Counted from the stretch's first letter, positions 2,895 through 38,055 are shown. The stretch is DNA of 64,000 nucleotides from Gammaproteobacteria bacterium (GCA_027295305.1 JAPULC010000024.1:248-64247), one strand, 5' to 3'. Numbers and translations are program-made. Notes: generated by a model not told the origin, from the letters alone.

Positions 2895-3227
2895 ATGACC
2901 CAGGACCTATCCAACGAGGACTTCGCCAGGCGGATGCGGGAGCAACGTGGAGAGCCGCGACTGATCCGTCTGCCGGCCGTCATGAGGCAGGGGGAACGGC
3001 TCGCCGAGTTCGCCGAGCAGTGGGAGCGCGTGATGATGAGCGCAGGGCTTTGGCGCAAACCCACTTTGGCGAGCATCGAGAAGACTGTGGAGGCCATGCC
3101 CGGGGTACTGTCCGCAGAGGCCACCGAGACGTCACCAGGAGTCGTCGAAGTCAGCGCGATGGTGCGTGGGCCCGTTATCTACTCGAAGACAATCCGCATA
3201 CCCCTATCATCGGTGCCCCTGCCATGA
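2895..3227 (+). CDS. Hypothetical protein, shared N-terminal motif family
   Basis: ATG at 2895 lies just after the upstream stop. N-terminus LSNEDFARRMREQRGEPRLIR. Its stop overlaps the next ATG as ATGA. Confidence 0.55.
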   Translation: MTQDLSNEDFARRMREQRGEPRLIRLPAVMRQGERLAEFAEQWERVMMSAGLWRKPTLASIEKTVEAMPGVLSAEATETSPGVVEVSAMVRGPVIYSKTIRIPLSSVPLP

Positions 3228-6124
3228 CCAAGAATATCCGAATATACGCGCCTGAGGGCATGGATCGCCTGGAACTCGCCCAGCATGTGATGGGGCCTTC
3301 CTTCCTCCTGAAGGCCGAGCGGCTCAAGTACAGCGAGCGGACCTTTCAGCATTACAAGGCGATGCAGCAGTCGGCGGAGCAGTTTGAGCGCGCCTACCGC
3401 AAGCAAATGGCCAGGATTCTTCAGGCGGTTCGGGCCTACGCGGAAGAAGAGATAATAGATAGCAAACTGAAGAAGGCCGAGCGTAGCCCCTACGATAGTA
3501 TCGCAAATCCCGAGCACCTGAAGGCCATCCGCGCGATCGTCACCGACTACCACCTAGCGTTCATCGCGGCCCGGGTCGGTCCCGAGTACGTGTCGGCCGA
3601 GGACATCCAGCGGATCATCGACAGCGGCATCCTGCCGGCCGACCTGCAGCACACCTACGATCCGGCCCTGGGCGGCGAGCCCGCGACCAGCGCGCAGAGC
3701 ATCGCCGACGCCTACAACTACGGCATTTCCATGGGGCGCGACCCCCGCCTGCGCGGCGTCGCCAGCGTCCTGGGCATCGACCCCTGGCGGACCAAGTACG
3801 GCGATCCGACCCTGTCCAGCCAGGAGCAGGCCGCCCGCACCTGGGCGTCCGGCAACGCGGCCAACACCATCACGGGCCTGGGCAACCGGGTGGGGGACGA
3901 CTTCAGCACCCTGGCCGTCGAGGCCGACGCCGAGCTGCGCGCCAAGTACCAGGCCGACGTCCGCCAGGAGCTGGACATGAACATCGAGCGCCAGCAGTCA
4001 TGGCGGAAGCTCGCGAGCGACCTGGGCCACAGGACCGAGGACTGGTCCCGGGACTTCAAGCGCATCGCGGCGACCGAGAAGCAGGCCGCTATGCAGCAGG
4101 GACTCACCGCGGGGCTCATCGAGCGCGAGGGCGACCCCGACGAGATCAACGTGGCAAAGCAACCGTCGCCTGGCGCCTGTCCAGATTGTGTGCGTTTACA
4201 CTACACCGCAGGTGAAGGCTCACCCCTGCGCATCTTCAAGTTATCTGAACTTCAAGCCAATGGAACGAACGTTGGGAAGAAGCAAAATGCATGGCTAGCC
4301 ACAATTGGGCCAATTCATCCGTGGTGTCACCGGCCGGATGCGGTGGTGGAGACTAGGGAGGGTCCGCGCCCGCTAGCCCTCATCCGGCCGGGTGACCGCG
4401 TGCTCACCCACAAGGGGCGATTCCGACCCGTACAGCGCGTCGCGAAGCGCGCCCACCGGGGCGAGCTTGTGGAACTCCTCAGCGGCGACGAGATCTTCGT
4501 AGCGACGCCAGAGCACCCGTACCTCACTCAGCGCGGATGGGTGGCGGCTTCGGATTTGCAACCGGGCGATCATCTCATGCGCGTTTTGCAACGACCCCTT
4601 GAGGATGTAGGCGCGAATGACAATCCAGCCGAGCGCTTCGAGGTAGGCCGACTTCTGGAGATCCTGGGCGATTTTGCGTTCGGACGAGTGCCACGTTGGG
4701 TCCACCTCTACGGCCGCGAAAATCCCCGGCAGCGCGAGGTCGATGTTGTATGGGCCTACCGCCAGCTGAGGCGTCGGATCAAATCCGTGGCGGCGCAAGG
4801 TGCCGAGCACCTGCTGTTCATACTCCGTCAGGTCGCCGGTTTTCTGTCGCGTCTGAGCCGAGCGGATCTTCTGCACGGCTGGGCGCGGCTTGCCACGGAC
4901 TGCGGCATGAGCGTTGTGTACCATCGCCCGGCGGCCCTCAGCATCCAGTTGATCCCAGAGCAAGCGAGTAGCTTCAGCAGGAGTTCGGATAGTGACGCCA
5001 TTCGCCCGCAACTTGGCGTTGATCGTTTGGGCACAAACCCCATATCTATTTCCGAGTTCGGAAGTCGGAGCGCCAGCAATATAGGCAGCGCACATATCTT
5101 CAATCGGGATGGAAGCAGCCCCGCCTTGGCTGATTTTGATGCCCGCGGCGGCGCTGCGTCGACGGACGGTATTCCCGCTGACCCCAAGCCGGGAAGCGAG
5201 TGCGGACACAGTGATTTCTCCGCGCTCCAAGGGGTCGCGGAATTCCTCAATATCGATGGAGTAGACCATGGCGACACGCTATACCATGGTGTTGAAATTA
5301 ATGAAATCCGTTCACATGAACATGATGGGGAGGTGTATTCGCTGAGCGTTGCCGAGGACGAGTCATATATCGTGGATGGCGTCGTGGTGCACAACTGCGC
5401 TTGTGAACTTATCCATGTGCCCAACGGCTGGGGCTTCAACGAAGACGGCGACCTCATGCCGGAAAGCCTGCTGCGCGCCGAGCTGCTCCCGGGCGACCTG
5501 CGCAAAGCCCACCTGACCTGGGGCAGCGTCGTGCCCGAGCGCGGCGTGGCTGTGCGCCTGGGCGACCCGCAGAAGGTGGCCGTGGCTGACGAGGTCATCG
5601 CGCGCACCCCCCCGGAGATTTTCGACAGGCGCGTGGGCATCACCCTGATCTGCGAAGACGAGCCGCGGGTCGAGAATGCGATGAGCGACCACGACCTCGC
5701 CTACTGGACCGGCAACGAAATCCGCGTGTCGGGCAAGGTCACCGCCGAGATGCTCCGGCACGTGCTCGAACATGAGATAGGCCACTCCCTGAACGTGTGG
5801 CTGATGTACTGCTGGGGCGGCGAGCCGAAGGTCATCGCGTGGCATGCGAAGCTATATCAGGTAAGTGAGGGCGAAGGGTTCGTGAGCGCCTACGCGCAGA
5901 CCGCGCCCATCGAGAATGCGGCCGAGCTGACTCGGCTCTATCTGTACGACCGCAAGCTCATCATGATGCAGTTCCCGCGGGCCTTCGCGATGCTGCACAA
6001 AGCCTACAAAGGGATATGGCGAAAGGGACGCAATGACCGACCACTCGAAGAACGACCCGGCGAGCAAGCCAAGCAACGACAAGACGCCATCGACGAGCGC
6101 AAGCGCGGAGGCGCCCGACTTTGA
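3224..6124 (+). CDS. MuF (SPP1 gp7)-like domain protein with C-terminal HExxH metallopeptidase-like module, interrupted by an intein
   Basis: ATG at 3224 in an ATGA overlap (the track start 3020 is rejected). It has a CPDC...HPW|intein|CACEL MuF signature and HEIGH at 5771-5785. The last ~90 nt overlap the better-coding 6033 frame. Confidence 0.8.
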   Translation: MTKNIRIYAPEGMDRLELAQHVMGPSFLLKAERLKYSERTFQHYKAMQQSAEQFERAYRKQMARILQAVRAYAEEEIIDSKLKKAERSPYDSIANPEHLKAIRAIVTDYHLAFIAARVGPEYVSAEDIQRIIDSGILPADLQHTYDPALGGEPATSAQSIADAYNYGISMGRDPRLRGVASVLGIDPWRTKYGDPTLSSQEQAARTWASGNAANTITGLGNRVGDDFSTLAVEADAELRAKYQADVRQELDMNIERQQSWRKLASDLGHRTEDWSRDFKRIAATEKQAAMQQGLTAGLIEREGDPDEINVAKQPSPGACPDCVRLHYTAGEGSPLRIFKLSELQANGTNVGKKQNAWLATIGPIHPWCHRPDAVVETREGPRPLALIRPGDRVLTHKGRFRPVQRVAKRAHRGELVELLSGDEIFVATPEHPYLTQRGWVAASDLQPGDHLMRVLQRPLEDVGANDNPAERFEVGRLLEILGDFAFGRVPRWVHLYGRENPRQREVDVVWAYRQLRRRIKSVAAQGAEHLLFILRQVAGFLSRLSRADLLHGWARLATDCGMSVVYHRPAALSIQLIPEQASSFSRSSDSDAIRPQLGVDRLGTNPISISEFGSRSASNIGSAHIFNRDGSSPALADFDARGGAASTDGIPADPKPGSECGHSDFSALQGVAEFLNIDGVDHGDTLYHGVEINEIRSHEHDGEVYSLSVAEDESYIVDGVVVHNCACELIHVPNGWGFNEDGDLMPESLLRAELLPGDLRKAHLTWGSVVPERGVAVRLGDPQKVAVADEVIARTPPEIFDRRVGITLICEDEPRVENAMSDHDLAYWTGNEIRVSGKVTAEMLRHVLEHEIGHSLNVWLMYCWGGEPKVIAWHAKLYQVSEGEGFVSAYAQTAPIENAAELTRLYLYDRKLIMMQFPRAFAMLHKAYKGIWRKGRNDRPLEERPGEQAKQRQDAIDERKRGGARL
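4325..5395 (+). mobile_element. Class-1 intein (357 codons) inserted in the MuF HPxCxC motif
   Basis: Starts with Cys (CHRPDAVVET), has a TPEH block-B-like motif, and ends VVVHN followed by Cys+1. Removing it restores HPWCAC. Confidence 0.75.
4373..5269 (-). CDS. Homing-endonuclease-like protein (two HTH units plus Vsr/DUF559-like nuclease core) encoded antisense inside the intein
   Basis: 298-aa ORF with ITVSALASRLGVSGNTVRR, TSELGNRYGVCAQTINAKL and VGPYNIDLALPGIFAAVEVDPTWH. It reads as a real protein, whereas the + frame of the same DNA does not. Confidence 0.65.
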   Translation of the reverse strand: MVYSIDIEEFRDPLERGEITVSALASRLGVSGNTVRRRSAAAGIKISQGGAASIPIEDMCAAYIAGAPTSELGNRYGVCAQTINAKLRANGVTIRTPAEATRLLWDQLDAEGRRAMVHNAHAAVRGKPRPAVQKIRSAQTRQKTGDLTEYEQQVLGTLRRHGFDPTPQLAVGPYNIDLALPGIFAAVEVDPTWHSSERKIAQDLQKSAYLEALGWIVIRAYILKGSLQNAHEMIARLQIRSRHPSALSEVRVLWRRYEDLVAAEEFHKLAPVGALRDALYGSESPLVGEHAVTRPDEG

Positions 6125-21821: not shown

Positions 21822-22274
21822 ATGAAAAAATATGACGCAGAGGTAGTAGGGCTAATCGCGGAACGCGTGCATGCCCGCACGGCCAGACTAAACGGTACGG
21901 ATGGGCTTGTGGGTTGTACGGACTTCGTGCCAAGATTGGATAAGACAATGAAACGACAACCCAGAACAGTGCGACTCGCCGTCAATCCTGACGAGATGGT
22001 GCTCATTGGAGAACACATGGCATCGAGAGAAGACCCGCAGTGCGCCCGCATCGAGATCCGCACCGACAAGAAAACCAAAGATGCGCTGCAGGCGCTCGCG
22101 GAGGAAGCTGGAGCGGACAGCTTGACCGCGTTCATGTTGGATCGAGCGATTGCAAGGCCAACCCAGAAGGAAATCCGCGAGTGGAGAAAGCGCTCAAACT
22201 CAAAGGTCGCCGTCGCGAAGCGCGGGGTTCGGGATGCTCAGAAAAAGTTGAGGGAAGCGCAAGGCAATGGCTGA
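21822..22274 (+). CDS. Ribbon-helix-helix (DUF1778/CopG-like) domain protein
   Basis: ATG at 21822 follows GAGGGG. The segment RIEIRTDKKTKDALQALAEEAGADSLTAFMLDRAI fits an RHH pattern. Confidence 0.55.
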   Translation: MKKYDAEVVGLIAERVHARTARLNGTDGLVGCTDFVPRLDKTMKRQPRTVRLAVNPDEMVLIGEHMASREDPQCARIEIRTDKKTKDALQALAEEAGADSLTAFMLDRAIARPTQKEIREWRKRSNSKVAVAKRGVRDAQKKLREAQGNG

Positions 22275-22575
22275 CGGACCCAACACAGTCATCGTGCGAC
22301 GCTACCGCCCAGCGTTCTTTGAAGGGTTCAAAGTCGAGGCGGTGACGGTGACGAGCATGGAGCAGCTCGTTGAGATTCCTTGGATCGCGCAGCACGCAAA
22401 GGCCGACGGGTTTGAAAGGTACGACGTCCATGTCAGCGAAGCTTGCGGCGTTACGCAGGTGACTATTTCCGCGATCTGCGCAGAAGTCCACTGGGTGATC
22501 GCCATGCTCGAAGGTCCAGGCGCAAAGGCGTTATCGGGTAGCTGGTCGTACGAGCCGGTAGAAAGCGAGGGGTAG
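22267..22575 (+). CDS. Hypothetical protein
   Basis: 102-aa ORF. Confidence 0.55.
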   Translation: MADGPNTVIVRRYRPAFFEGFKVEAVTVTSMEQLVEIPWIAQHAKADGFERYDVHVSEACGVTQVTISAICAEVHWVIAMLEGPGAKALSGSWSYEPVESEG

Positions 22576-22576
22576 G

Positions 22577-23056
22577 ATGGTTGAGTTCAGAAAGATTGTT
22601 CGGAATGGGATTGTTGATGAAGATGGCTACGGTGGTTTCGTGATCAGCGAGGTCAGCGGCGAACCTGAGGGCGACTTTGATGACGGCCCATGTGAGGCGC
22701 TGGAGCCGCCAAGCTATGGGATCTTACGAGACAGCGACGGTGGGTTCGTTATGCATCCGGTCACCGAAGTCGACCCGGACCGTTGGGATGACGGTAGTGG
22801 GGAGCTAGCGAAGGTGCCCGTTGGGCTATGGCAGGTGGTGCTGGTGTTTCCTCTAGCGCCGCGTGGCTTCCGGTACGTCCACGGGCAGACACTGTATGCG
22901 AAAGCGGAGTATGCAGAGTCCGCTTACCGAGAAGGCGAGCGCCCTGTGACCTGGGTCGGGATGACCGCCGTCAGGGAGTACTTCGCTTATGCTATTCGGC
23001 AGGGTGCCAAGTTGCTGGACACGGGGTGTGTGTTGCTTGGTGAGGGTCGGCTATGA
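22577..23056 (+). CDS. Hypothetical protein
   Basis: 159-aa ORF with GAGGGGTAGG upstream. Confidence 0.55.
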   Translation: MVEFRKIVRNGIVDEDGYGGFVISEVSGEPEGDFDDGPCEALEPPSYGILRDSDGGFVMHPVTEVDPDRWDDGSGELAKVPVGLWQVVLVFPLAPRGFRYVHGQTLYAKAEYAESAYREGERPVTWVGMTAVREYFAYAIRQGAKLLDTGCVLLGEGRL

Positions 23057-23232
23057 ACCGCAATCGCAAAGCCAGGTCAGTCCGATGGCGGCACCCGGTG
23101 CGGCAGCCCAGGGAGTTCGTCACCGCCAACAGGCTCGACCTGGAGAACAAGTTTGATATACATGCCGGAACAGTCCACGTGGATTGGCTCCCGCCGGTCA
23201 AGCTACGATTGGTAGAGGGAGGACAGTCATGA
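23053..23232 (+). CDS. Hypothetical basic small protein (59 aa)
   Basis: ATGA overlaps at both ends. It was translated by hand and is below the ORF-track cutoff. Confidence 0.4.
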   Translation: MNRNRKARSVRWRHPVRQPREFVTANRLDLENKFDIHAGTVHVDWLPPVKLRLVEGGQS

Positions 23233-23744
23233 AACGCAGAGGGTTTTTGAAGCTGATCGGGATCGGGGCTGCGGGGACTGCGGTCGCCCCGCTGGTTGGC
23301 GCAAACGCGCAGGAAACGGTCGAGCGTGATGCCGGCGTGAACTGGAATCCCGCTTGCCCGAACCCGCTGGCGGTGAAGCTGGATGGCCCGACACTGATTT
23401 CGGTTGGGGATGTTCCGCGATTGATTTCGGGCGGCATCGTCACGTTGAGCGATGGCAATCCGTCAGAGTTCGATGTCGGCGCGGGCGAGGTGGTTTTCCC
23501 GCTCTATACCGATGACCCATGGGTACCGTTCAGCTCCTTTGTTTCGATAGGTTTCCTCTGGCACAAGGACTACAGCTGCGTAGGCATCAACCACAGTGGT
23601 AAGTTAGAGGTGCATGGCTTCGACGCTCCCAAGTGGCTAACTCCCATCGACCAACGACGGCTCGTGCACCTCGCCACGGTCTACCATTGGGACCACAACA
23701 CGGTCACCTCGATCGAAGTTCCGCAGAGACTGGCAGCCCTATGA
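23229..23744 (+). CDS. Secreted protein with twin-arginine (Tat) signal peptide
   Basis: ATG at 23229 follows GGGAGGA. N-terminus MKRRGFLKLIGIGAAGTAVAPLVGANA|QE matches the Tat consensus RRxFLK. Confidence 0.65.
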   Translation: MKRRGFLKLIGIGAAGTAVAPLVGANAQETVERDAGVNWNPACPNPLAVKLDGPTLISVGDVPRLISGGIVTLSDGNPSEFDVGAGEVVFPLYTDDPWVPFSSFVSIGFLWHKDYSCVGINHSGKLEVHGFDAPKWLTPIDQRRLVHLATVYHWDHNTVTSIEVPQRLAAL

Positions 23745-23771
23745 CACAGCAAGGCGACCACGGCGCGAACT

Positions 23772-23781
23772 ATATCCGGTA
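23772..23781 (+). promoter_or_regulatory. WTATCMSGTA motif copy (ATATCCGGTA), 10 nt upstream of ATG 23792
   Basis: Read directly from the sequence. It sits in a 47-nt gap at the head of junction-motif array 1. Confidence 0.45.
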
Positions 23782-23791
23782 AGGGGTAGGC

Positions 23792-23977
23792 ATGGAAATC
23801 GGAAGCGAAGAATGGGTGAGGTCACAGAATCGAGCGCAAGGGCTGTTCCTCTTGCTTGTGTTCCTGGCCGGCCTAGCTGTGCTGTTCACGATGCGGTCCA
23901 TCGTTGACATGAACGACCTGATCGTCGAGCAGCGGCAACGGCTGTCCGACTGCGACTGCATGGAAGGAACCCCCTGA
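23792..23977 (+). CDS. Small membrane protein
   Basis: It has a transmembrane helix (GLFLLLVFLAGLAVLF) and ends in junction motif 1. Confidence 0.5.
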   Translation: MEIGSEEWVRSQNRAQGLFLLLVFLAGLAVLFTMRSIVDMNDLIVEQRQRLSDCDCMEGTP

Positions 23978-24153
23978 TGCCGAGTGACGAACTGAAGCCA
24001 TGCCCCTTCTGCAGGGGCGGCTGGGTCGTAATCGTAGGAACGGACAAGGGTGTGTGGGCTAAATGTTTCGAGTGCGACGCACAGGGGCCCAGACATCCAG
24101 AGGCGGATGCAGCCCTGGAGAGCTGGAACCGCGCGACCAAGGAGACCCCCTGA
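23977..24153 (+). CDS. Lar-like restriction alleviation protein
   Basis: 58 aa. The sequence ELKPCPFCRGG...WAKCFECDAQGP...EADAALESWNR matches the Lar family pattern (CPFCGG...C..C...GP....A...WN). Confidence 0.65.
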   Translation: MPSDELKPCPFCRGGWVVIVGTDKGVWAKCFECDAQGPRHPEADAALESWNRATKETP

Positions 24154-24428
24154 TGTCACGGCACTACGACGCGAGGAGAGTGGTGGACGCGGTCCCGGGG
24201 CGGCTTGGCCCCGCCCACCGCCAGGGCGAGCTCTGGTGGGTGCTGCTGGAGTGCGGCTGCATCTGCTGGCGTGCGTGTAAGCCGGGTCGGGGCCTGAAGT
24301 GCGAGACGCATGAACTCGGGCCCGTCACCCTCACTGGCCTGACGGAGATCGGCAAGCAATGTCCTGCATGTAGCCGCCCGATCCAAGCATGTGAGGACCA
24401 ATGCTGGCTATGCCGGAGGACCCCCTGA
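24153..24428 (+). CDS. Hypothetical Cys-rich protein
   Basis: Bounded by junction motifs. It carries CGCICWRAC...CPAC...CEDQCWLC. Confidence 0.5.
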   Translation: MSRHYDARRVVDAVPGRLGPAHRQGELWWVLLECGCICWRACKPGRGLKCETHELGPVTLTGLTEIGKQCPACSRPIQACEDQCWLCRRTP

Positions 24429-24637
24429 TGCAGATCAAGTTCTGGAAAATCTACGCCAAGATCATGGCGGTGCTGCTCGGCATGGTCGCCTTTGCCGCTG
24501 GCACGAACCTCGCCGCGCATGTGATTGAGCTTGTCACCGGCGTTGGGTCGGGGTGGGTGATGTTGGCGTTCGGAGCCGCCTACATCGTAATCGGCGTTGG
24601 AGTTGCCGCACACCAGGTAACCAAGGAGACCGACTGA
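24428..24637 (+). CDS. Small membrane protein (2 TM)
   Basis: Bounded by junction motifs. It has two hydrophobic helices. Confidence 0.55.
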   Translation: MQIKFWKIYAKIMAVLLGMVAFAAGTNLAAHVIELVTGVGSGWVMLAFGAAYIVIGVGVAAHQVTKETD

Positions 24638-24671
24638 TGCCGATAGCCACCCAGACAGAGAAAGAACCGAC

Positions 24672-25139
24672 ATGCTAATCGACCCAGAGAACCTGAGAGC
24701 ACCAGATCCTGTTCTAGCCGTGATCGCGGGTAGCGGCGCTGGCCCCATACGTTTGGCGGAAGGACAGTACGAGATAGGTCATTTCAGCTTTGACATGTTG
24801 CTCAGCGCGCGCGGTGGAAATCTAGCAGGTGGGGACCTATGGTCGGACCACCCCGAGTTTCCGTGGGGCTACGGCGAAGGCAAGCCCGACTGTTATGGGG
24901 TGTGCGACTCCCCCGTTCAGTTCATGGATGACCACGGCGCCTGGCTCAACGAGACCGACAGGAAGTTCTGCATCTCGTTCACCCCCATTCACAAAGCTGA
25001 GCAAGGGCCCGATGGAGGCTGGCGTTGGCACAAGTGGGGCGCTTACGTAGGGCGCGGGACGCCCACCTACGAATACCTCTACGACGAGCCCGACTTTGAG
25101 ACGGTGTATTGCTTCCACATCTACGAGCGGACCGACTGA
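24672..25139 (+). CDS. Hypothetical protein
   Basis: 155-aa ORF. It is preceded by a 13-codon MP-ORF that starts in junction motif copy d. Confidence 0.6.
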   Translation: MLIDPENLRAPDPVLAVIAGSGAGPIRLAEGQYEIGHFSFDMLLSARGGNLAGGDLWSDHPEFPWGYGEGKPDCYGVCDSPVQFMDDHGAWLNETDRKFCISFTPIHKAEQGPDGGWRWHKWGAYVGRGTPTYEYLYDEPDFETVYCFHIYERTD

Positions 25140-25471
25140 TGCCGATCACATGGTGCAAAGACTGTAGCGAAAGCATTTTCGACTACGATGGCGCGAGGCC
25201 GCACAAGTGCCCGCCGGCGTTCCTCGTTTGGTACGAGGGTCACGGCGATGACCCCGAGGTCGATCACGATGTGGTGCACTCGCACGATGCCGAGTCGGCT
25301 GCCGAGAAGTGGGCCGAGGAGAGCGACGGCCAGGGCGACTACACGATCGTCCAGGGTAGCGACGAAACCGTGAAGGTGCGCCCGCGCGATGGTGGTGCGT
25401 GGGAAACCTGGACGGTGAGTGGCGAGACCGTCGCGCAGTACTCCGCGACGAAGGTCAAGGCGACCCCCTGA
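25139..25471 (+). CDS. Hypothetical protein
   Basis: Bounded by junction motifs, starting MPITWCKDC. Confidence 0.55.
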   Translation: MPITWCKDCSESIFDYDGARPHKCPPAFLVWYEGHGDDPEVDHDVVHSHDAESAAEKWAEESDGQGDYTIVQGSDETVKVRPRDGGAWETWTVSGETVAQYSATKVKATP

Positions 25472-25683
25472 TGCCGGAACGCGGATACACAGTGGCGGAG
25501 CTGTTGGCCATACCAGGTTGCGAAAGCGTGTCCTTGTTCGGCGCAGACGGTTCCGGTGTGAAGGTGACACGGCCCCCGGGGAAGTGGGTGCCGGCGCTGC
25601 GGGAAATCTGTCGTCACGATATCAAGGGGCACTGTGAGGACTGCATGATTCACGGGCCCGACATGGAATGGGAGACCGACTGA
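25471..25683 (+). CDS. Hypothetical protein
   Basis: Bounded by junction motifs. Confidence 0.5.
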   Translation: MPERGYTVAELLAIPGCESVSLFGADGSGVKVTRPPGKWVPALREICRHDIKGHCEDCMIHGPDMEWETD

Positions 25684-25970
25684 TGCCGATAGTACACAAG
25701 CTCAAGACATGGTCAGACGAATGGGACGCGGTCTCACGCCGCGACAAGCGCTTCGAGTTCCGACGCAACGATCGGGACTTCAAGGTAGGGGATGTGCTTC
25801 GGCTCCAGCGGTGGAACCCCGTGCTGGGCGAGTACACAGGTGCGCTCGATATTCTGGTGCCAGTCACCTACGTCCTACACGGAAACCACCATCACGCATT
25901 CGGAGTGCCTGAGGGCTACTGCGTGATGTCGTTGGATTGCAACTTTGAACAGGTCGCGAGGACCGACTGA
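25683..25970 (+). CDS. DUF3850/ASCH-like (PUA-fold) protein
   Basis: The sequence HKLKTWSDEWDAVSRRDKRFEFRRNDRDFKVGDVLRLQ matches the DUF3850 pattern (H.LK....F......K.FE.R.NDRDF.VGD.L.L). Confidence 0.6.
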   Translation: MPIVHKLKTWSDEWDAVSRRDKRFEFRRNDRDFKVGDVLRLQRWNPVLGEYTGALDILVPVTYVLHGNHHHAFGVPEGYCVMSLDCNFEQVARTD

Positions 25971-26128
25971 TGCCGATCGACTTCACCGTTACGCTGGACC
26001 TCATCAAGTACACGTTCACAGTCGAGGAGCTACGGCGGTGCGAGCGGTCAGTCTCTCAGGTCTTGGCTGAGCGTCACGACCGTGCCCTGCTGAGGGTGCT
26101 GTTTCCCCACCCACCGGAGACCGTCTGA
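25970..26128 (+). CDS. Hypothetical small protein (52 aa)
   Basis: Bounded by junction motifs. Translated by hand. Confidence 0.4.
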   Translation: MPIDFTVTLDLIKYTFTVEELRRCERSVSQVLAERHDRALLRVLFPHPPETV

Positions 26129-26376
26129 TGCCGAGAATCAATCCCGACTGGGGCCACATCGAAACGGAAGCCACAGCAGCGCTTGTCCCGCATGGGCGCC
26201 GTGTACCGCTCAGGGAGTGCCCAACCGGACCCTACCAGTTCTCCGGGGGGTTCGCGTGGATGTCGGAGTATGGAGGCGAGTCCTACCTTACCAGTGGGGA
26301 ACGTTGCGTCATTGCCAAGGATACGATGGTGCAACCTCTGGTGGTTGTTGCCCACACAATCGAGGAGACACCCTGA
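26128..26376 (+). CDS. Hypothetical protein
   Basis: Bounded by junction motifs. Confidence 0.5.
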   Translation: MPRINPDWGHIETEATAALVPHGRRVPLRECPTGPYQFSGGFAWMSEYGGESYLTSGERCVIAKDTMVQPLVVVAHTIEETP

Positions 26377-26534
26377 TGCCGAGCACGAAACGCAAGATGC
26401 GGATGCAGTGGATTGGGGACGCGGCCACGTTCGTTGTGTTCGTGATTGTATTTTTCCCGTTCATCATCATGGGCGGGTTCGCGTGGCTGGCGTTTGACCT
26501 CCCGGAGCGACTAGGGCTTTGGAGGGTAGAGTGA
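26376..26534 (+). CDS. Small membrane protein (52 aa)
   Basis: It starts at the last junction motif and has a hydrophobic core (FVVFVIVFFPFIIMGGFAWLAF). Confidence 0.45.
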   Translation: MPSTKRKMRMQWIGDAATFVVFVIVFFPFIIMGGFAWLAFDLPERLGLWRVE

Positions 26535-26539
26535 AGAGG

Positions 26540-27196
26540 ATGCCTGAAGCACCACGCCGCGTCGCCATCTACGTGCGCGTGTCCACACGCGACCAACGCC
26601 TGCTCCAGCAGTTTCGCGAGGTGCGTCGTATGGTCGAGCGCAAGGGCTGGACCATCGTCAAGGTCTACCGCGAGCGTCGTAGCGCCAAGCAGGGTGCCTA
26701 CCGACCCGAGTGGGAGCGCCTACGGAAAGACGCCGCACGTAAGCGCTTCGGGGCCGTCGCTGTCTGGTCAATCGATCGGATGGGCCGTAGCACCCTAGAC
26801 GTGCTCAAGGGCGTAGAGGGGTTCGAGAGGCGCGGCGTCGAGCTGCTGATCGTCAAGCAGAAGGTGGACACCACGTCACCGCTCGGCAAGCTCCTGCTGA
26901 CCATCCTGGCAGCGTTCGCACAGATGGAACGGGAGCTGATCAGTGAGCGCACCAAGGCAGGCATGGCGGCGCGGCGTGCAGCGGGCCTGCCTCTGGGTCG
27001 GGTTGCCGTCCTGGTACCACGCGAGCACATCGATGCGGTTCTTAGTGAGGAGAAGTCAGCGGCCCAGGTGAGCCGCGAGACAGGTATCGGAGTCGGTACC
27101 ATCCGGGCTCGGGTGAGGGCAGCGAAAAGGGAGGGGGGTCACGCCGTGCAAACGTCCGCTGGCACCCGACAGCAGAAAGGGCTCCCCCATGGTTGA
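26540..27196 (+). CDS. Small serine recombinase (resolvase/invertase family) with C-terminal HTH
   Basis: It has VAIYVRVSTRDQ (catalytic Ser), VWSIDRMGRS, LLTILAAFAQMERELISERTKAG, and the HTH AAQVSRETGIGVGTIRARV. An alternative GTG start at 26531 gives a GTGA overlap. Confidence 0.85.
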   Translation: MPEAPRRVAIYVRVSTRDQRLLQQFREVRRMVERKGWTIVKVYRERRSAKQGAYRPEWERLRKDAARKRFGAVAVWSIDRMGRSTLDVLKGVEGFERRGVELLIVKQKVDTTSPLGKLLLTILAAFAQMERELISERTKAGMAARRAAGLPLGRVAVLVPREHIDAVLSEEKSAAQVSRETGIGVGTIRARVRAAKREGGHAVQTSAGTRQQKGLPHG

Positions 27197-27371
27197 GCAA
27201 CCGAACGACCTGTGGACGGTCGGCAGTGACGGTCGAATCGTGGCCATCCCAGGACGCCCCGCCCCAGACTGGCACTACGATTGCGGCTGTTCGGGCACGG
27301 CCATTCAGTTCGTATGTACGGCGGGGTGCTGGCGGGAATACGTGCGACAGCAGAAAGGGCTCGGCAAATGA
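27189..27371 (+). CDS. Hypothetical Cys-containing small protein
   Basis: 60-aa ORF between motif-2 copies a and b. Confidence 0.45.
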   Translation: MVEQPNDLWTVGSDGRIVAIPGRPAPDWHYDCGCSGTAIQFVCTAGCWREYVRQQKGLGK

Positions 27372-27574
27372 GTGCTCACCCCACCAAGCTAGCAAAGACT
27401 ATGTTGATGCAATGTCCGCGCTGCGATGCACCGCCAGGCCAATCGTGCCAAGCGTATTCGGGGTGGCGTGCGGGTCTGCGTGCAGGTGCGAACCGCCTTT
27501 CCTATCAGAACCTCCACCCACACGCCGAACGGTGGAGAGCGTACCTCGACCAGCAAGAAAGGCTCGACGGATGA
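27368..27574 (+). CDS. Zinc-ribbon small protein (CPRC-x3-PGQ-x-C family)
   Basis: ATGA overlap. It carries QCPRCDAPPGQSC...HPHAER and is a paralogue of 18525-18722. Confidence 0.5.
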   Translation: MSAHPTKLAKTMLMQCPRCDAPPGQSCQAYSGWRAGLRAGANRLSYQNLHPHAERWRAYLDQQERLDG

Positions 27575-27927
27575 CTCACCCCATGGAGGATGCGGTAGCG
27601 GCTACTCGCGAACTCAAGCCCGGGCTCGTGCTTACGCGAGCACAGCGTTCGGCACTAAGCGCTCTCGCGTGGGGGCAGTACTACTTCGGTGGCCTGCTAA
27701 CCGGCGGGAACACGCGTCGCGCAGTTGTCCTTGCGCTCTGCAAGAAGGGCCTCGCTGAAAGTCAGGGAATGGTGGAGCAGTGCGACGGCGACGGCTTCAT
27801 CTTGCACGGTCGCCAGATGCGCGAGGCGTTCGGACTCACCAGCGCCGGCCTCGACGAGGCCGTAAGGCTCGATTGCTATTACGCGAAGGAGTTGGTCAAG
27901 CGCGACCAGCAGAAAGGGCTCCAATGA
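27571..27927 (+). CDS. Hypothetical protein, possible winged-helix
   Basis: ATG at 27571 in an ATGA overlap. The VVLALCKKGLAESQG segment is wHTH-like. The 244-aa track ORF upstream of 27571 is a shadow frame. Confidence 0.55.
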   Translation: MTHPMEDAVAATRELKPGLVLTRAQRSALSALAWGQYYFGGLLTGGNTRRAVVLALCKKGLAESQGMVEQCDGDGFILHGRQMREAFGLTSAGLDEAVRLDCYYAKELVKRDQQKGLQ

Positions 27928-28178
27928 AGAAACGTGACGCCAAGCGATACGCCTACCAACTGGCGGCCGAGATCCTCACGCGCAACCAGCAATCGGGCGT
28001 GGTGGCCGAGGACGTGACCGATGTGTCCGTGGGGGGCTACGGGGAGCGAGAGGTAGTGATGGTGGAGGCCGCTATGTCCGAGATCATAGCGGCACTGGAG
28101 GCGCGCGGGGACAGGCTCTACCCGCCGGGGAGCAAAGGCGCTGCGGCGTGTCAGCAGAAAGGGCTCGGTGAAGGATGA
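27924..28178 (+). CDS. Hypothetical protein
   Basis: ATGA overlap, lying between motif-2 copies d and e. Confidence 0.5.
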   Translation: MKKRDAKRYAYQLAAEILTRNQQSGVVAEDVTDVSVGGYGEREVVMVEAAMSEIIAALEARGDRLYPPGSKGAAACQQKGLGEG

Positions 28179-28570
28179 GGTCCGTACTGACAAACCGCGA
28201 TTTGGATGCGATGCGGCACATCGCCGACAGCATTCGCCAATCCGCGCAGGAGACTGGTTACGGGTTTTTCCCAGGGGGTGACCCGCGTGAGTTTTTCCCC
28301 GACGGAGAGTCGTGCAGTAATGAGGAGCTGGAAGCGCATCGGGTAGCTTGTGCAGAGTGGGATGCGGGAACTGGCCAGGACATTGGCGGCCCCTGCACCG
28401 TCGAACACGTCGAGATTGAGAGGAAGGATGGCAGCGTGCTCTCGGGTCCGGCACTGGTCACCCGCGCGCACTATGGCATTGGTACCTACACGATGTCCGA
28501 TCCCGACATCGAGAAGCTGGCCCAGCAGCTTGACGACTGGATGGACGCAGCAGCGCAGGCGGGCATATGA
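28175..28570 (+). CDS. Hypothetical protein
   Basis: 131-aa ORF. Confidence 0.55.
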   Translation: MRSVLTNRDLDAMRHIADSIRQSAQETGYGFFPGGDPREFFPDGESCSNEELEAHRVACAEWDAGTGQDIGGPCTVEHVEIERKDGSVLSGPALVTRAHYGIGTYTMSDPDIEKLAQQLDDWMDAAAQAGI

Positions 28571-28598
28571 CCCGACAGCAAGAAAGGCTCGGTGAAGG

Positions 28599-28835
28599 AT
28601 GAGTGGCGAGCAGGAGGACAATCTAGAGCTCTGCGTGCTGTCGTATGGGCGCGCGGGCTATGACGGGGCGGGTTGGTACTACTGGGACGCTGAGTATCCG
28701 GCAGAGGGTTCGGTGGGTGCGTTTGTGACGCTGGACGAGGCCTGCGACCACGCGGTGGAGGCCGGGTATGTGCGCCCCAAGCCCAGTGCGGACGACCTGA
28801 AACGGGAAGCGGGTGAACATGTATTCGGCGACTGA
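28599..28835 (+). CDS. Hypothetical protein
   Basis: 78-aa ORF preceded by an intergenic motif-2 copy. Confidence 0.5.
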   Translation: MSGEQEDNLELCVLSYGRAGYDGAGWYYWDAEYPAEGSVGAFVTLDEACDHAVEAGYVRPKPSADDLKREAGEHVFGD

Positions 28836-28865
28836 CATCGATCAGCAAAAATGGCTCGGTGAACG

Positions 28866-29117
28866 ATGAGCATGATGGACGTGTACTGTTCCGTTTGCAG
28901 GAATCCGTTCTCGACGGGGTGTATCTGCAGCGTCTTCGTGGCGGGGGGCGAGGCACCAGTCGCTTCCTGTGTGCGGTCCCCGGAGCAGCTTCGTTTGGTC
29001 ATTGAGTATGCGCGGCGTGAATGGCGAGATGACGGGGCTGATGGTGAGTCGGTGCATGCCCTCTGCGATGCATTGGAACTGCGGCTCGACAGTGAGCAGC
29101 AAGAAGGGCTCAAATGA
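28866..29117 (+). CDS. Hypothetical Cys-rich protein
   Basis: 83-aa ORF preceded by an intergenic motif-2 copy. Confidence 0.5.
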   Translation: MSMMDVYCSVCRNPFSTGCICSVFVAGGEAPVASCVRSPEQLRLVIEYARREWRDDGADGESVHALCDALELRLDSEQQEGLK

Positions 29118-29746
29118 GAATCAGAATGGAGATCATCGACCTGGTGCGGGGCCTGCGCGCGGTCGCCCTCGCAACTGGTGGAAAGCAGTTCCCGGACATG
29201 CTCATCGATGTGGTCGATGGTGAGCTGCATTTCGTCGCCACCGACGGCTGTTGGCTCATCGAGTGGCAGCATGATGTCGGTCGCAGTACCGAGGATGCCC
29301 GTGTCGGCGTCTGTGGCCTCTCTCTGGCGGCTGCCATTCCGACGCTCATCCAGTTCGCGGAAGGCCAGGAAACTCAGGGAGACCTGCTGCTGGGCGACGG
29401 AGCGGCGTTCGTGGAGGATGGGGTGAAACCGATCCGCATCGAACATGGCCTGGGCGCCGTGACCATCAACGGCGCGGCCCTGTCCGGGCTGACATTTGCG
29501 GACAAGTATGAGGCGCTGATGCGACCCGCTCGCCATCCCGCGCCCGCGCCGTATTTTGCAGGCACGGCGGGCTATCTGACGAAGGTCGCGGAGGCGTTCA
29601 AGATCGTAGGAGGAAGGGCCGACCCGAATCTGCTGCTCCGTGTTGGCGGAGCCATGGATCCGATCCATGTCACCTGCCCTGACCTCCCCGAGCTGACAGC
29701 GATTCTGATGCCCGTGCGACTATCGGATCGCAGCCCGAAGTCTTGA
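29114..29746 (+). CDS. DnaN (beta sliding clamp)-like protein, truncated two-domain-like form
   Basis: LHFVATDGCWL resembles the DnaN VATDGHRLA motif. GLTFADKYEALMRP resembles G.FPDYRRVLP, and the near-C-terminal ILMPVRL (9 residues before the stop) resembles the terminal MPMRL of DnaN. It is only 210 aa. Confidence 0.6.
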   Translation: MRIRMEIIDLVRGLRAVALATGGKQFPDMLIDVVDGELHFVATDGCWLIEWQHDVGRSTEDARVGVCGLSLAAAIPTLIQFAEGQETQGDLLLGDGAAFVEDGVKPIRIEHGLGAVTINGAALSGLTFADKYEALMRPARHPAPAPYFAGTAGYLTKVAEAFKIVGGRADPNLLLRVGGAMDPIHVTCPDLPELTAILMPVRLSDRSPKS

Positions 29747-30542: not shown

Positions 30543-30946
30543 ACTATGGGGTGGGTATGGAACACGAAATCACGCGCCATCGCCGGACCGGCGGCTCGGC
30601 CAATCCTGCCATTCGGATCACGGCGAAGCCAAAGGTCGACGGGCATTGCCACGAGTATGAGTTCAACATGCTGCCCATGCGCATCGGCGATGGGACCATG
30701 ACGCCGAAGGTCTTCGCCTGTATCCTATTCCAGGATGGGATACCTGCGGAGGTCGGCATCAACGGCACCACGGAGGAAGCGCTGATCGCCATCCTCATCG
30801 ATCGGCTGGAGCGCTTCAACAAGGGGCCATACGCTTGTCGGCAGAACAGCCTTGCGATCACCAGCCTGGAAACGGCCATGCACTGGCTGGGCGACCGGAC
30901 GGCCGAGCGGTCGGAGCACGGCGTTGAAGGGACCATGGCGCCATGA
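30521..30946 (+). CDS. Conserved phage protein of unknown function
   Basis: The pattern ILFQDGIPAEVGINGTTEEALIAILIDRLERFNKGPYACRQNSLAITSLETAMHWLGDRTAERSEHGVEGT recurs in phages. I cannot name the family with confidence, and the start is uncertain. Confidence 0.6.
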   Translation: MAPVEHIHYGVGMEHEITRHRRTGGSANPAIRITAKPKVDGHCHEYEFNMLPMRIGDGTMTPKVFACILFQDGIPAEVGINGTTEEALIAILIDRLERFNKGPYACRQNSLAITSLETAMHWLGDRTAERSEHGVEGTMAP

Positions 30947-31998: not shown

Positions 31999-32043
31999 CG
32001 CCCGCTGGTCCACACATCCCCCCCGGACCGGCGGGCGTTTTTT
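31999..32043 (+). terminator. Rho-independent terminator
   Basis: A 13-bp stem pairs CGCCCGCTGGTCC with GGACCGGCGGGCG (one G-U pair). The loop is 13 nt and TTTTTT follows at 32038-32043. Confidence 0.8.
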
Positions 32044-32059
32044 ATGGCATGCTGCGCCC

Positions 32060-32791
32060 ATGCAGGTCTACAGCGTCGCGGAACTAGTCAAAGCGCGGAA
32101 GCTGGACCGCCGCCGCAAGTTCCAAGGGCTGGACATCTCAGTCGAGACGCAGCGCGGCGCCTACCGTCATTGGCATGACCCGCACACGGGTCGAGACGGC
32201 AAGACCAAGATGCCGTGGGACTACGGATATATCCGTGGCAGCGTGGGCGCCGATGGGGACCATGTCGACGCCTACATCGGGCCAGATCCCAACGCCACGC
32301 ACGCGTATGTGGTCGACCAAATGAGAGCACCTGACTTCCAGATATTTGACGAACAAAAGGTCTTTCTAGGGTTTGAGTCTGCCCAGGATGCGCGCGCAGC
32401 CTATGCGAGTTGCTATGATAAGCCCGGTTTTTTCGGCCGCTTGAAGGCCGTTCCGATGGGGGAGTTCCGCCGCCAAGTCCTGAACACCTCGAAGGACGCC
32501 CCACTGATCAAGGCTGGCGGCGACACGAGTCTGGTCCACGAGATCTTCGAGGATGCGACGCCGGGCTACCCCGTGGTCACCCACGTTTTCACGGGCAAGG
32601 ACCGCGCGGAGGTGCAGGGATACTTCGATGCGCACATGAAGACCGATGCCTTCATGCGGGGCATGGAGAATGCCGGCGAGTGGAACGGGGTGAAGGGCCG
32701 CGCGGTCAAGCGCTGGTCGGCCGCGGGGATGGGTCTACGGAAGGCGGCTAGGAAGCGGCTGGGCTTGCGGCTGGATCTTCCGCGCCTGTGA
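32060..32791 (+). CDS. Hypothetical virion-module protein with pyrophosphatase-like DGDxxD motif
   Basis: 243-aa ORF with GADGDHVDAYIG. It is the first gene after the terminator. Confidence 0.6.
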   Translation: MQVYSVAELVKARKLDRRRKFQGLDISVETQRGAYRHWHDPHTGRDGKTKMPWDYGYIRGSVGADGDHVDAYIGPDPNATHAYVVDQMRAPDFQIFDEQKVFLGFESAQDARAAYASCYDKPGFFGRLKAVPMGEFRRQVLNTSKDAPLIKAGGDTSLVHEIFEDATPGYPVVTHVFTGKDRAEVQGYFDAHMKTDAFMRGMENAGEWNGVKGRAVKRWSAAGMGLRKAARKRLGLRLDLPRL

Positions 32792-37668: not shown

Positions 37669-38055
37669 ATGGCAGCGAATGCAGACGACCTAAAGCATTT
37701 CTACGCTGAGCGCATTGGGATCAGCGTCATCCTCAGTGTCGGGGACGCTGCTTCCGTGCCCCTTGCCGCGCCCCTTGCTCCCGGTCGGTACCGACTCAGC
37801 ACGAAAGTTGTCGCAGGGGGCGCCACGCTGTTGTGGGTGAGACAGGGGCCGTTCGCCGGCCTCCCGGATGCAGTCGCGGCGGCCCCGCTCCTCCCCATCG
37901 ACCTGCTGGAGGATCCCAGGTTCAAACCCATCTTCATCGCGCGGCCGCCAGGGCAGGGAAACGTCGGCCCGGCGACGGCATCGGACGGTCTCACGTTCAT
38001 CACGGACGCGGGCACCGTCGATGTGGTGATCACGAGGATTTCAGCTGATGGCTGA
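37669..38055 (+). CDS. Hypothetical virion protein
   Basis: 128-aa ORF in the late module. Confidence 0.55.
   Translation: MAANADDLKHFYAERIGISVILSVGDAASVPLAAPLAPGRYRLSTKVVAGGATLLWVRQGPFAGLPDAVAAAPLLPIDLLEDPRFKPIFIARPPGQGNVGPATASDGLTFITDAGTVDVVITRISADG

Follow-up and report, generated by a model that had tools for sequence, protein, structure and literature searches.

A stop/start junction sequence bounding small-gene cassettes in uncultivated tailed phages, a probable translational-coupling linker for cassette exchange

The window analyzed here, a stretch of 64,000 nucleotides (GCA_027295305.1, JAPULC010000024.1:248-64247), is a fragment of a tailed-phage genome from an uncultivated phage contig in an environmental metagenome-assembled genome (MAG) labeled Gammaproteobacteria. 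It contains an array of eleven small genes joined by ten copies of one sequence of about 21 nt, hereafter motif 1, which is centered on a TGATG overlap of the upstream stop codon and the downstream start codon. The motif is constrained as a nucleotide sequence rather than through the residues it encodes, it recurs in nine other contigs with almost wholly different cargo, and, as far as comparison of the assemblies shows, cassettes have been lost, duplicated, and exchanged by crossovers inside it. We favor, with a probability of about 0.58, the reading that a junction for translational coupling doubles as a short-homology linker for cassette exchange.

Anatomy of the junction in the window

A search with GGAGACCSMCTGATGCCGA at up to three mismatches returned exactly 10 matches in 64 kb, all on the plus strand and all within positions 23965-26382, while dinucleotide-preserving shuffles yielded 0.13 matches on average and 2 at most. 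No copy was found in the 64-kb window outside this interval (0.13 expected). With ACCNNCTGATG, 9 matches were obtained in the window against 0.65 expected. In 10 of 10 copies, TGA closes the upstream open reading frame (ORF) and ATG opens the next one. A motif confined to gene boundaries was what the original prediction, made by a model from this DNA alone, had described; the observation was confirmed as a whole, and the ten TGATG positions it quoted, with their flanks, match the sequence exactly.

The copies, all on the plus strand, are located at 23965-23983 (copy 1, AGGAACCCCCTGATGCCGA), 24141-24159 (copy 2, GGAGACCCCCTGATGTCAC), 24416-24434 (copy 3, GAGGACCCCCTGATGCAGA), 24625-24643 (copy 4, GGAGACCGACTGATGCCGA), 25127-25145 (copy 5, GCGGACCGACTGATGCCGA), 25459-25477 (copy 6, GGCGACCCCCTGATGCCGG), 25671-25689 (copy 7, GGAGACCGACTGATGCCGA, as in copy 4), 25958-25976 (copy 8, GAGGACCGACTGATGCCGA), 26116-26134 (copy 9, GGAGACCGTCTGATGCCGA), and 26364-26382 (copy 10, GGAGACACCCTGATGCCGA).

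The conserved stretch spans -12 to +9 around the T of TGATG, which makes about 21 nt per copy. It comprises a Shine-Dalgarno (SD)-like purine run (-12 to -7), a fixed spacer that reads ACCGAC or ACCCCC, the one-base TGATG overlap, and CCGA after the ATG. The cassette of about 20 nt and RGGAGACC type that had been proposed is therefore real, with its extent revised to -12..+9 and its consensus, family-wide, to RGGRACC(GA/CC)C TGATG CCGA. The upstream proteins do end in -(E/R/G/A)-T-(P/D/V), and 8 of the 10 successors start with M-P, as had been noted. All eleven genes are present as well, but an additional mini-ORF of 13 codons, opened by copy 4 at 24637, had been missed.

Other signals were not detected at the junctions. 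A consensus of 30 junctions folded as RNA gave 0 pairs, no Rfam family was found in the arrays, and terminator-like sites inside the arrays occurred at chance level only. A scan of 14.5 kb for sigma-70-like promoters found 2 sites against 3.6 expected, none of them at a junction.

Relatives, nucleotide constraint, and cargo turnover

The window had no match among GenBank phages in a megablast search. Scanning of IMG/VR, JGI metagenomes, and GTDB genomes with two motif patterns produced almost exclusively single, chance-level hits and an array only in one contig, L105, so that the other relatives were reached through proteins. L105 is a 5.2-kb contig of a Planctomycetota MAG; it carries ten motif-1 copies (8 of them within 3 mismatches), followed by a gene for a small serine recombinase that is 80% identical in DNA to the one located just downstream of the array in the window (26540-27196). 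Recombinase homologues with 73%-93% identity led to eight more contigs, and a ninth was reached from one with 54% identity. The relatives are all metagenome assemblies, read within +-10 kb of the bait genes; as the recombinase served as bait, its presence in the relatives is an ascertainment effect. The IMG/VR relatives of a 155-aa cassette protein of the array (up to 47% identical) and of the recombinase (up to 38%) included none with the motif.

In all these contigs, motif 1 occupies nearly every stop/start junction upstream of the recombinase gene, with 2-28 copies in each, while the junctions downstream of this gene in the relatives carry CAGCRAGAARGGCTCG, in up to 16 copies per contig. 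The ten contigs including the window (203 kb) contain 122 motif-1 matches on the plus strand and 3 on the minus strand; 121 of the 122 plus-strand matches lie upstream of the recombinase or at its start, and 109 are located at strictly verified stop/start overlaps. The two motif classes form two contiguous blocks on opposite sides of the recombinase gene. Motif 1 is unchanged even in the phage whose recombinase is only 54%-55% identical, the C-terminal DNA-binding region included, and co-divergence of motif and recombinase was rejected on this ground. Conservation among relatives, one of the expectations attached to the original prediction, is borne out by the nine other contigs, and on their evidence motif 1 is a lineage-wide feature of uncultivated phages.

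In order to avoid circularity, conservation was quantified on 92 junctions taken from independent gene calls only (gene end = next start). The motif was present in about 85 of them, and positions -12 to +9 contained 26.3 bits, of which about 10 belong to TGATG, about 4 to the purine run, and about 12 to the spacer ACCGAC together with CCGA. Conservation ends abruptly at both edges, -12 and +9. The codons that fall within the motif are nearly fixed at synonymous sites: threonine is encoded by ACC in 78 of 82 cases (background 41%, p = 1e-25), proline by CCG in 67 of 73 (background 42%, p = 4e-19), and aspartate by GAC in 62 of 65 (p = 4e-7). The overlap has the form TGATG at 90 of the 92 junctions and TAATG, with the motif kept, at the other 2, and L105 contains one intergenic copy followed by a GTG start. 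In a set of 130 candidate TGATG junctions, positions -3/-2 were nearly always GA (80/130) or CC (18/130) and rarely mixed.

These data show that the constraint acts on nucleotides and not on residues, in line with the proposal that conservation exceeds the needs of a ribosome-binding site (RBS), given the roughly 12 bits outside the SD and the stop/start codons; synonymous sites of the last and first codons had been suggested as a check. The 155-aa protein ends in ...ERTD, while its homologue in a motif-less phage has a different end; judging from such comparisons, the terminal residues encoded by the motif are linker, not protein. It is very improbable that the junctions are merely strong RBSs combined with TGATG, the extra conservation being due to amino-acid preferences at protein ends or to tandem duplication. 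The purine run at -12 to -7 and TGATG are indeed the usual coupling signals, and other genes of the phage use GGAG/GAGG-type sites. However, the near-fixed synonymous codons, the copies that are intergenic or have TAATG, and the mutual unrelatedness of the cassette proteins do not agree with this explanation. In addition, the TGATG junctions at 38046 and 59192 of the same phage are motif-less, as are the small-gene junctions of an unrelated phage with a 59%-identical homologue of the 155-aa protein, which means that the motif is not a general requirement for coupling. The synonymous-codon test and the control junctions therefore largely refute an ordinary RBS with residue preferences.

The genes between the motifs are almost all different. 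Among 95 motif-1 cassettes of 9 arrays, only 2 cross-genome homologous pairs and 1 paralogous family were found (blastp E < 1e-3), and the window shares essentially the recombinase alone with eight relatives within +-10 kb. Three events place breakpoints inside the motifs. First, contig L253 differs from L254/L255 by exactly one 224-bp cassette in flanks that are 99.7%-99.96% identical; its joint consists of the left flank, CAGCAGAAAGGGCTCG, and the right flank, with the crossover inside CAGCAGAAAGGGCTCG. Second, L263 contains a duplicated cassette (1305-1569 and 3521-3785, 99.6% identical), in which identity opens in one motif-1 copy and closes at the CCGA of the next. Third, a two-cassette block of 596 bp is common to L263 (355-950) and L261 (1005-1600) with 99.8% identity, although the two contigs share only about 80% identity in their recombinase genes; the matching stretch opens at GACCGACTGATGCCGA and closes two motif-1 copies further on, with unrelated sequences beyond. 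Blocks bounded by the downstream motif are also common to L252/L261 (81%) and L260/L270 (79%), and one cassette family of the downstream array comes first in the array of L260 and both second and fifth in that of L263, the fourth cassette of the window array being a distant homologue. The proposed linker role, in which genes vary while the motifs stay fixed, is supported by these observations.

Hinge recombinase, second array, and competing readings

The recombinase gene (26540-27196, plus strand) encodes a small serine recombinase of the resolvase/invertase type (PF00239, E = 2.2e-38) with an intact catalytic YVRVSTRDQ motif; its relatives in PDB are Gin and gamma-delta resolvase. It sits between both arrays in 10 of 10 contigs and can be regarded as a hinge cassette. 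Its start lies in a motif-1 copy in several relatives, and its 3' codons (...QQKGLPHG in the window) are encoded by a copy of the second motif in all relatives, according to the alignment. With a class-1 junction at the 5' side and a class-2 junction at the 3' side, it is the sole cassette that recombination between motifs of the same class cannot remove, and this position explains why the gene is retained.

The array originally described at 23963-26387 is real but represents only half of a larger module, since a second junction motif occurs at 27170-29111. Motif 2 consists of CAGCARGAARGGCTCG, 2-9 nt, and ATG, so that its spacing to the next start is variable; it is conserved throughout the relatives. 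In the form CAGCARRAARGGCTC, it has 8 plus-strand copies between seven further small genes. With up to two mismatches allowed, the window has 9 matches where 0.63 are expected; 8 fall within the array, and the ninth is an isolated minus-strand match with two mismatches. Six of the eight copies are translated as the C-terminal tail (...QQKGL...) of the preceding protein, and the other two lie between genes. The copies are located on the plus strand at 27170-27184 (copy 1, CAGCAGAAAGGGCTC, encoding the recombinase tail), 27348-27362 (copy 2), 27551-27565 (copy 3, CAGCAAGAAAGGCTC), 27907-27921 (copy 4), 28152-28166 (copy 5), 28576-28590 (copy 6, intergenic, the preceding gene stopping at 28570), 28843-28857 (copy 7, CAGCAAAAATGGCTC, intergenic, the preceding gene stopping at 28835), and 29097-29111 (copy 8, just before the ATG at 29114 of a conserved core gene). 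The seven cassettes (region 27189-29117, plus strand) extend over 27189-27371, 27368-27574, 27571-27927, 27924-28178, 28175-28570, 28599-28835, and 28866-29117, and the second of them encodes a phage zinc-finger protein (PF24623).

In L253, a hybrid junction at 1775-1800 consists of the upstream half of motif 2, CAGCAGAAAGGGCTCG, followed by the downstream half of motif 1, TGATGCCGG; it is located at the extreme end of the motif-2 array. Motif 1, motif 2, and GCCATCGCGGCC together account for all 12-mers recurring at least four times in the window. The last of these has 4 exact plus-strand copies (6833, 51645, 55064, and 55124; 0.04 expected) inside unrelated large genes.

Under the favored reading, the junction would couple the translation of each small gene to that of the previous one by termination-reinitiation. 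The anatomy suggests this, since an SD-like run at -12 to -7 combined with a TGATG overlap fits such a role, and the array shares with published termination-reinitiation pairs the co-directional arrangement, the one-base TGATG overlap, and an SD inside the upstream gene; in published experiments, strict coupling was seen for 13 of the 14 ATGA/TGATG pairs examined (Huber et al. 2019, PMC6728339). Coupling would allow a long series of unrelated accessory genes, strung together without promoters on one polycistronic message, to be expressed as a unit. However, ordinary coupled pairs keep only the overlap and, to varying extents, an SD, and not a 21-nt sequence across tens of unrelated pairs. Coupling cannot explain the bits outside the SD and stop/start codons, since these bases are missing from the phage's other TGATG junctions. 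The second component is shown by the comparison of relatives: recombination between any two copies, in the same genome or in co-infecting phages, deletes, duplicates, inserts, or exchanges whole genes. Because the same 16-21 nt stand at every junction, in frame on both sides, such events preserve all reading frames and expression signals, and the final two or three codons of a gene, like the two initial codons of its successor, are linker rather than protein. Exchange would most likely proceed via short-homology recombination by general recombination enzymes of the phage or host, and the motif could be kept uniform by a cassette pool common to all carriers of the linker, possibly in addition to a translational requirement. 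The second linker class (CAGCARGAARGGCTCG) would do likewise for the second array.

Several points weigh against this reading. The fixed spacer and CCGA are beyond the reach of a translational role. Short-homology recombination alone leaves unexplained both the identity of the motif at 54% recombinase identity and the strict separation of two classes flanking one gene. Motif copies are no more alike within genomes (11.26/17 identical positions) than between them (11.37/17; permutation p = 0.81); within-genome homogenization of variants was thus not seen, and intragenomic gene conversion is not what keeps the motif uniform, while equal similarity fits a common pool. No recombination genes besides the serine recombinase were identified in the window. 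The host labels of the bins disagree, the window MAG being labeled "Gammaproteobacteria" and the L105 MAG "Planctomycetota". Finally, the order of cassettes in a single contig of a relative may carry misassembly at repeats, but each junction is backed by unique flanks on both sides, and the cited events span more than one assembly or copies differing at one base.

It is possible, but rather doubtful, that the motifs are operators for sequence-specific trans-acting factors and that the two classes mark two co-regulated gene sets, motif recombination being a by-product of many identical sites. Such a factor might be a translational repressor or activator that binds RNA, an endoribonuclease that targets the initiation region (in the manner of RegA or RegB of T4), or a DNA-binding protein of the L5 stoperator type. 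The 12 bits outside the SD and stop/start codons are centered on the start codon, where a translational operator would sit; the invariance of the motif despite recombinase divergence, the arrangement of the two classes in two contiguous blocks, and the equal similarity within and between genomes, as expected under a common functional constraint, also agree with this view, and the same possibility was raised by the still unexplained start-associated sequences (SAS) of cluster K mycobacteriophages (PMC3203893, PMC12699233). On the other hand, an operator does not need strict register with the upstream stop codon, and the alternation of GA and CC at -3/-2 resembles two inherited alleles rather than per-base recognition. 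No conserved candidate factor was found by the arrays, only the recombinase being shared within +-10 kb, and Pfam and PHROG searches of the flanking genes for a single-strand-annealing recombinase or an RNA-binding regulator returned nothing informative.

An integron-like platform, in which the hinge recombinase catalyzes site-specific excision and insertion of cassettes at both motif classes, each linker also encoding the stop, RBS, and start of the flanking genes, and the module being autonomous, appears unlikely. Integrons employ a tyrosine recombinase and hairpin-forming attC sites of 57-141 bp. The likeness lies in a co-oriented, promoter-less array of unrelated small genes, a recurring site, and an adjoining recombinase that is conserved while the cargo varies. 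The intact catalytic motif, the position of the gene between the arrays in 10/10 contigs, its being essentially the only window gene common to eight relatives, and the fact that the closest capsid relative lacks the whole module at its syntenic site are also in favor. However, the recombinase was the bait, and its hinge position alone accounts for its retention. It is a PF00239 serine resolvase/invertase rather than an IntI-type enzyme, and the junction is an unstructured coding sequence without attC-like pairing. Crossover sites of serine recombinases (res site I, gix, and hix) consist of two inverted half-sites of about 12 bp round a central dinucleotide, while motif 1 is asymmetric, sharply bounded, and devoid of dyad symmetry, with no second conserved inverted block within +-40 nt. 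Inverted repeats that could mark an invertible segment were represented only by weak, chance-like pairs, none significant. Two different site classes would be needed, and motif 1 stays constant while the recombinase, including its DNA-binding region, diverges. If true, this reading would mean that both the recombination site and the cassette system are of a new kind.

Returning to the coupling linker, several known systems resemble it in part. The original prediction named the SAS of cluster K mycobacteriophages as a precedent. They are a reasonable analogue, but motif 1 does not belong to that family: the 13-bp SAS consensus GGGATAGGAGCCC at up to two mismatches had 3 matches in the window against 1.7 expected, all on the minus strand and none in the arrays. 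SAS are located 3-7 bp before the start at a variable distance, are not tied to an upstream stop, and number 11-19 per genome; they often carry an inverted-repeat extension on the upstream side (extended SAS, ESAS) and mostly precede conserved gene families (Pope et al. 2011, PMC3203893); their function was still unknown in 2025 (PMC12699233). Both elements are short, asymmetric, and in a single orientation, have an SD core beside the starts of non-structural genes, and are conserved before unrelated genes beyond the needs of rRNA pairing. Motif 2 also shares the variable spacing. In contrast to SAS, motif 1 is about 21 nt long, locked to TGATG, reaches into the downstream coding sequence, and is found at almost all junctions of a contiguous array, in up to 28 copies; its cargo is almost wholly different between relatives, with breakpoints demonstrably inside the motif, and its source is an uncultivated phage contig without a GenBank phage match rather than a cluster K mycobacteriophage.

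The promoter-early stem-loop (PeSL) elements of T4-type phages combine a sigma-70-type promoter and a terminator hairpin in intergenic positions (Arbiol et al. 2010, PMC2839356; Comeau et al. 2014, PMC4122927). Like motif 1, they are short, conserved signals for expression that separate small, non-essential ORFs of hyperplastic regions, and they act as points of homologous exchange, with breakpoints of indels or replacements between close relatives, as observed here. Motif 1 differs in working at the level of translation and in being embedded in coding sequence, without promoter, hairpin, or intergenic space. Stoperators, the DNA sites at which the repressor of temperate cluster A mycobacteriophages binds (PMC3203893, PMC3029335), are likewise asymmetric, short, numerous, oriented with transcription, and located near gene boundaries; unlike motif 1, they are out of register with stop and start codons. 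Neither a repressor nor a lysogeny module was seen in the present case.

Phage genomes are mosaics, and the modular theory of phage evolution provides the same concept for the joints between their modules.

In that theory, the conserved short stretches at gene borders, called boundary (linker) sequences, are the sites at which homologous recombination brings together otherwise unrelated modules. According to PMC3029335, most mosaic joints of lambdoid phages and mycobacteriophages lack them, so that illegitimate recombination is favored there and the model has been short of clear examples. Here, one 21-nt sequence is present at essentially every joint of the array and is common to divergent phages, and the single-cassette indel, the duplication, and the near-identical two-cassette block make the boundary-sequence model directly testable. 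The junction would work as a natural standard connector for gene shuffling, its translation signals doubling as the linker, and any gene gaining both ends would become a plug-in part, in frame and expressed. It could also serve as a ready-made standard for polycistronic constructs and offers a second, independent system for asking what SAS-type elements do. No account of such a stop/start linker embedded in coding sequence came up in a literature search, which was incomplete in its coverage and is no proof of absence.

Cassette genes and phage context

All ORFs of the motif-1 array show the GC3 > GC1 > GC2 pattern typical of coding sequences, in a genome with 62% G+C, and all are on the plus strand. 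Pfam and PHROG searches assigned families to four cassettes: Lar, DUF3850, phrog_18298, and phrog_21008. The first gene (23792-23977, 61 aa) has a hydrophobic core and an ordinary motif-less start and ends in ...EGTP. It is followed by a Lar-like restriction-alleviation protein of 58 aa (23977-24153; PF14354, E = 3.8e-10; phrog_599), a Cys-rich protein of 91 aa (24153-24428), and a hydrophobic, membrane-like protein of 69 aa (24428-24637), the latter two without family. Then comes the 13-codon mini-ORF MPIATQTEKEPTC (24637-24678), whose TAA overlaps the ATG (24672) of the 155-aa gene via ATGCTAA; a half motif, GAACCGAC (24661-24671), directly precedes this ATG. The 155-aa gene (24672-25139), of the widespread phage family phrog_18298/12048, has its own start, while its C-terminus is fused to the linker. 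The mini-ORF and the half motif may be the footprint, or scar, of the capture of a foreign gene, the family of which occurs in motif-less phages. The remaining cassettes encode a phrog_21008 protein of 110 aa (25139-25471), a 70-aa protein (25471-25683), a DUF3850/ASCH-like protein of 95 aa (25683-25970; PF12961, E = 3.7e-22; phrog_986), proteins of 52 aa (25970-26128) and 82 aa (26128-26376), and, as the last motif-1 cassette, a hydrophobic protein of 52 aa (26376-26534) with a motif-less 3' end. The 70-aa protein and those of 25970-26128 and 26128-26376 matched no family.

The Lar-like and DUF3850/ASCH assignments were thus correct, whereas the idea of an accessory or anti-defence cargo is borne out only in part, most cassettes being without family. 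Cassettes of L263 encode a protein with a weak match to AcrIF11-type ADP-ribosyltransferases and a Fic-domain protein (2140-2664 and 4993-5622), and those of other relatives encode DUF1643, RNA ligase, Dam, DpdA, and PAPS-reductase proteins. A cargo with Lar-like and, in relatives, weakly AcrIF11-like and Fic proteins makes the arrays a promising source of new genes for host takeover and anti-defence.

The window encodes an SU10-type major capsid protein (MCP), baseplate J, a tail-tube initiator, thymidylate synthase, and MazG. The whole accessory module (22274-29114, plus strand) lies between two core genes and consists of four motif-less genes, the motif-1 array, the recombinase hinge gene, and the motif-2 array. 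The closest capsid relative, L267/L268, has 92% MCP identity and is syntenic; its anchors match window positions 22017-22271 and 29114-29743, but between these anchors L267 contains only 1.3 kb of unrelated genes, without motif or recombinase. Judged by this synteny, the array module is accessory. In a second capsid relative (86% MCP identity), neither motif nor recombinase was found within 10 kb of the capsid gene. The capsid family is very large, with 480 clusters at E <= 1e-20; the best 120 listed are 69%-100% identical and are found on contigs of up to 118 kb.

In L262, one of the recombinase-bearing relatives, the genes just upstream include those for a DnaB-type helicase and a primase. 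A phage protein encoded just 5' of the array in the window (23229-23744) starts with MKRRGFLKLIGIGAAGTAVAPLVGANA, which resembles a twin-arginine export signal, and belongs to no Pfam or PHROG family. A 1034-aa protein (3020-6124) contains an intein/Hint splicing domain. A G+C-rich hairpin with a T-run, resembling a terminator, precedes a conserved gene at 32060 (hairpin at 32010-32045) and is kept in the closest relative (L267, 6500-6531); it probably marks the end of an early operon containing the arrays. The window ORF at 30560-30943 is 43% identical to the L267 gene at 5446-5820, and the latter has a weak match to the Pfam family Acb2_Tad1_hairpin, an anti-CBASS/Thoeris sponge fold.

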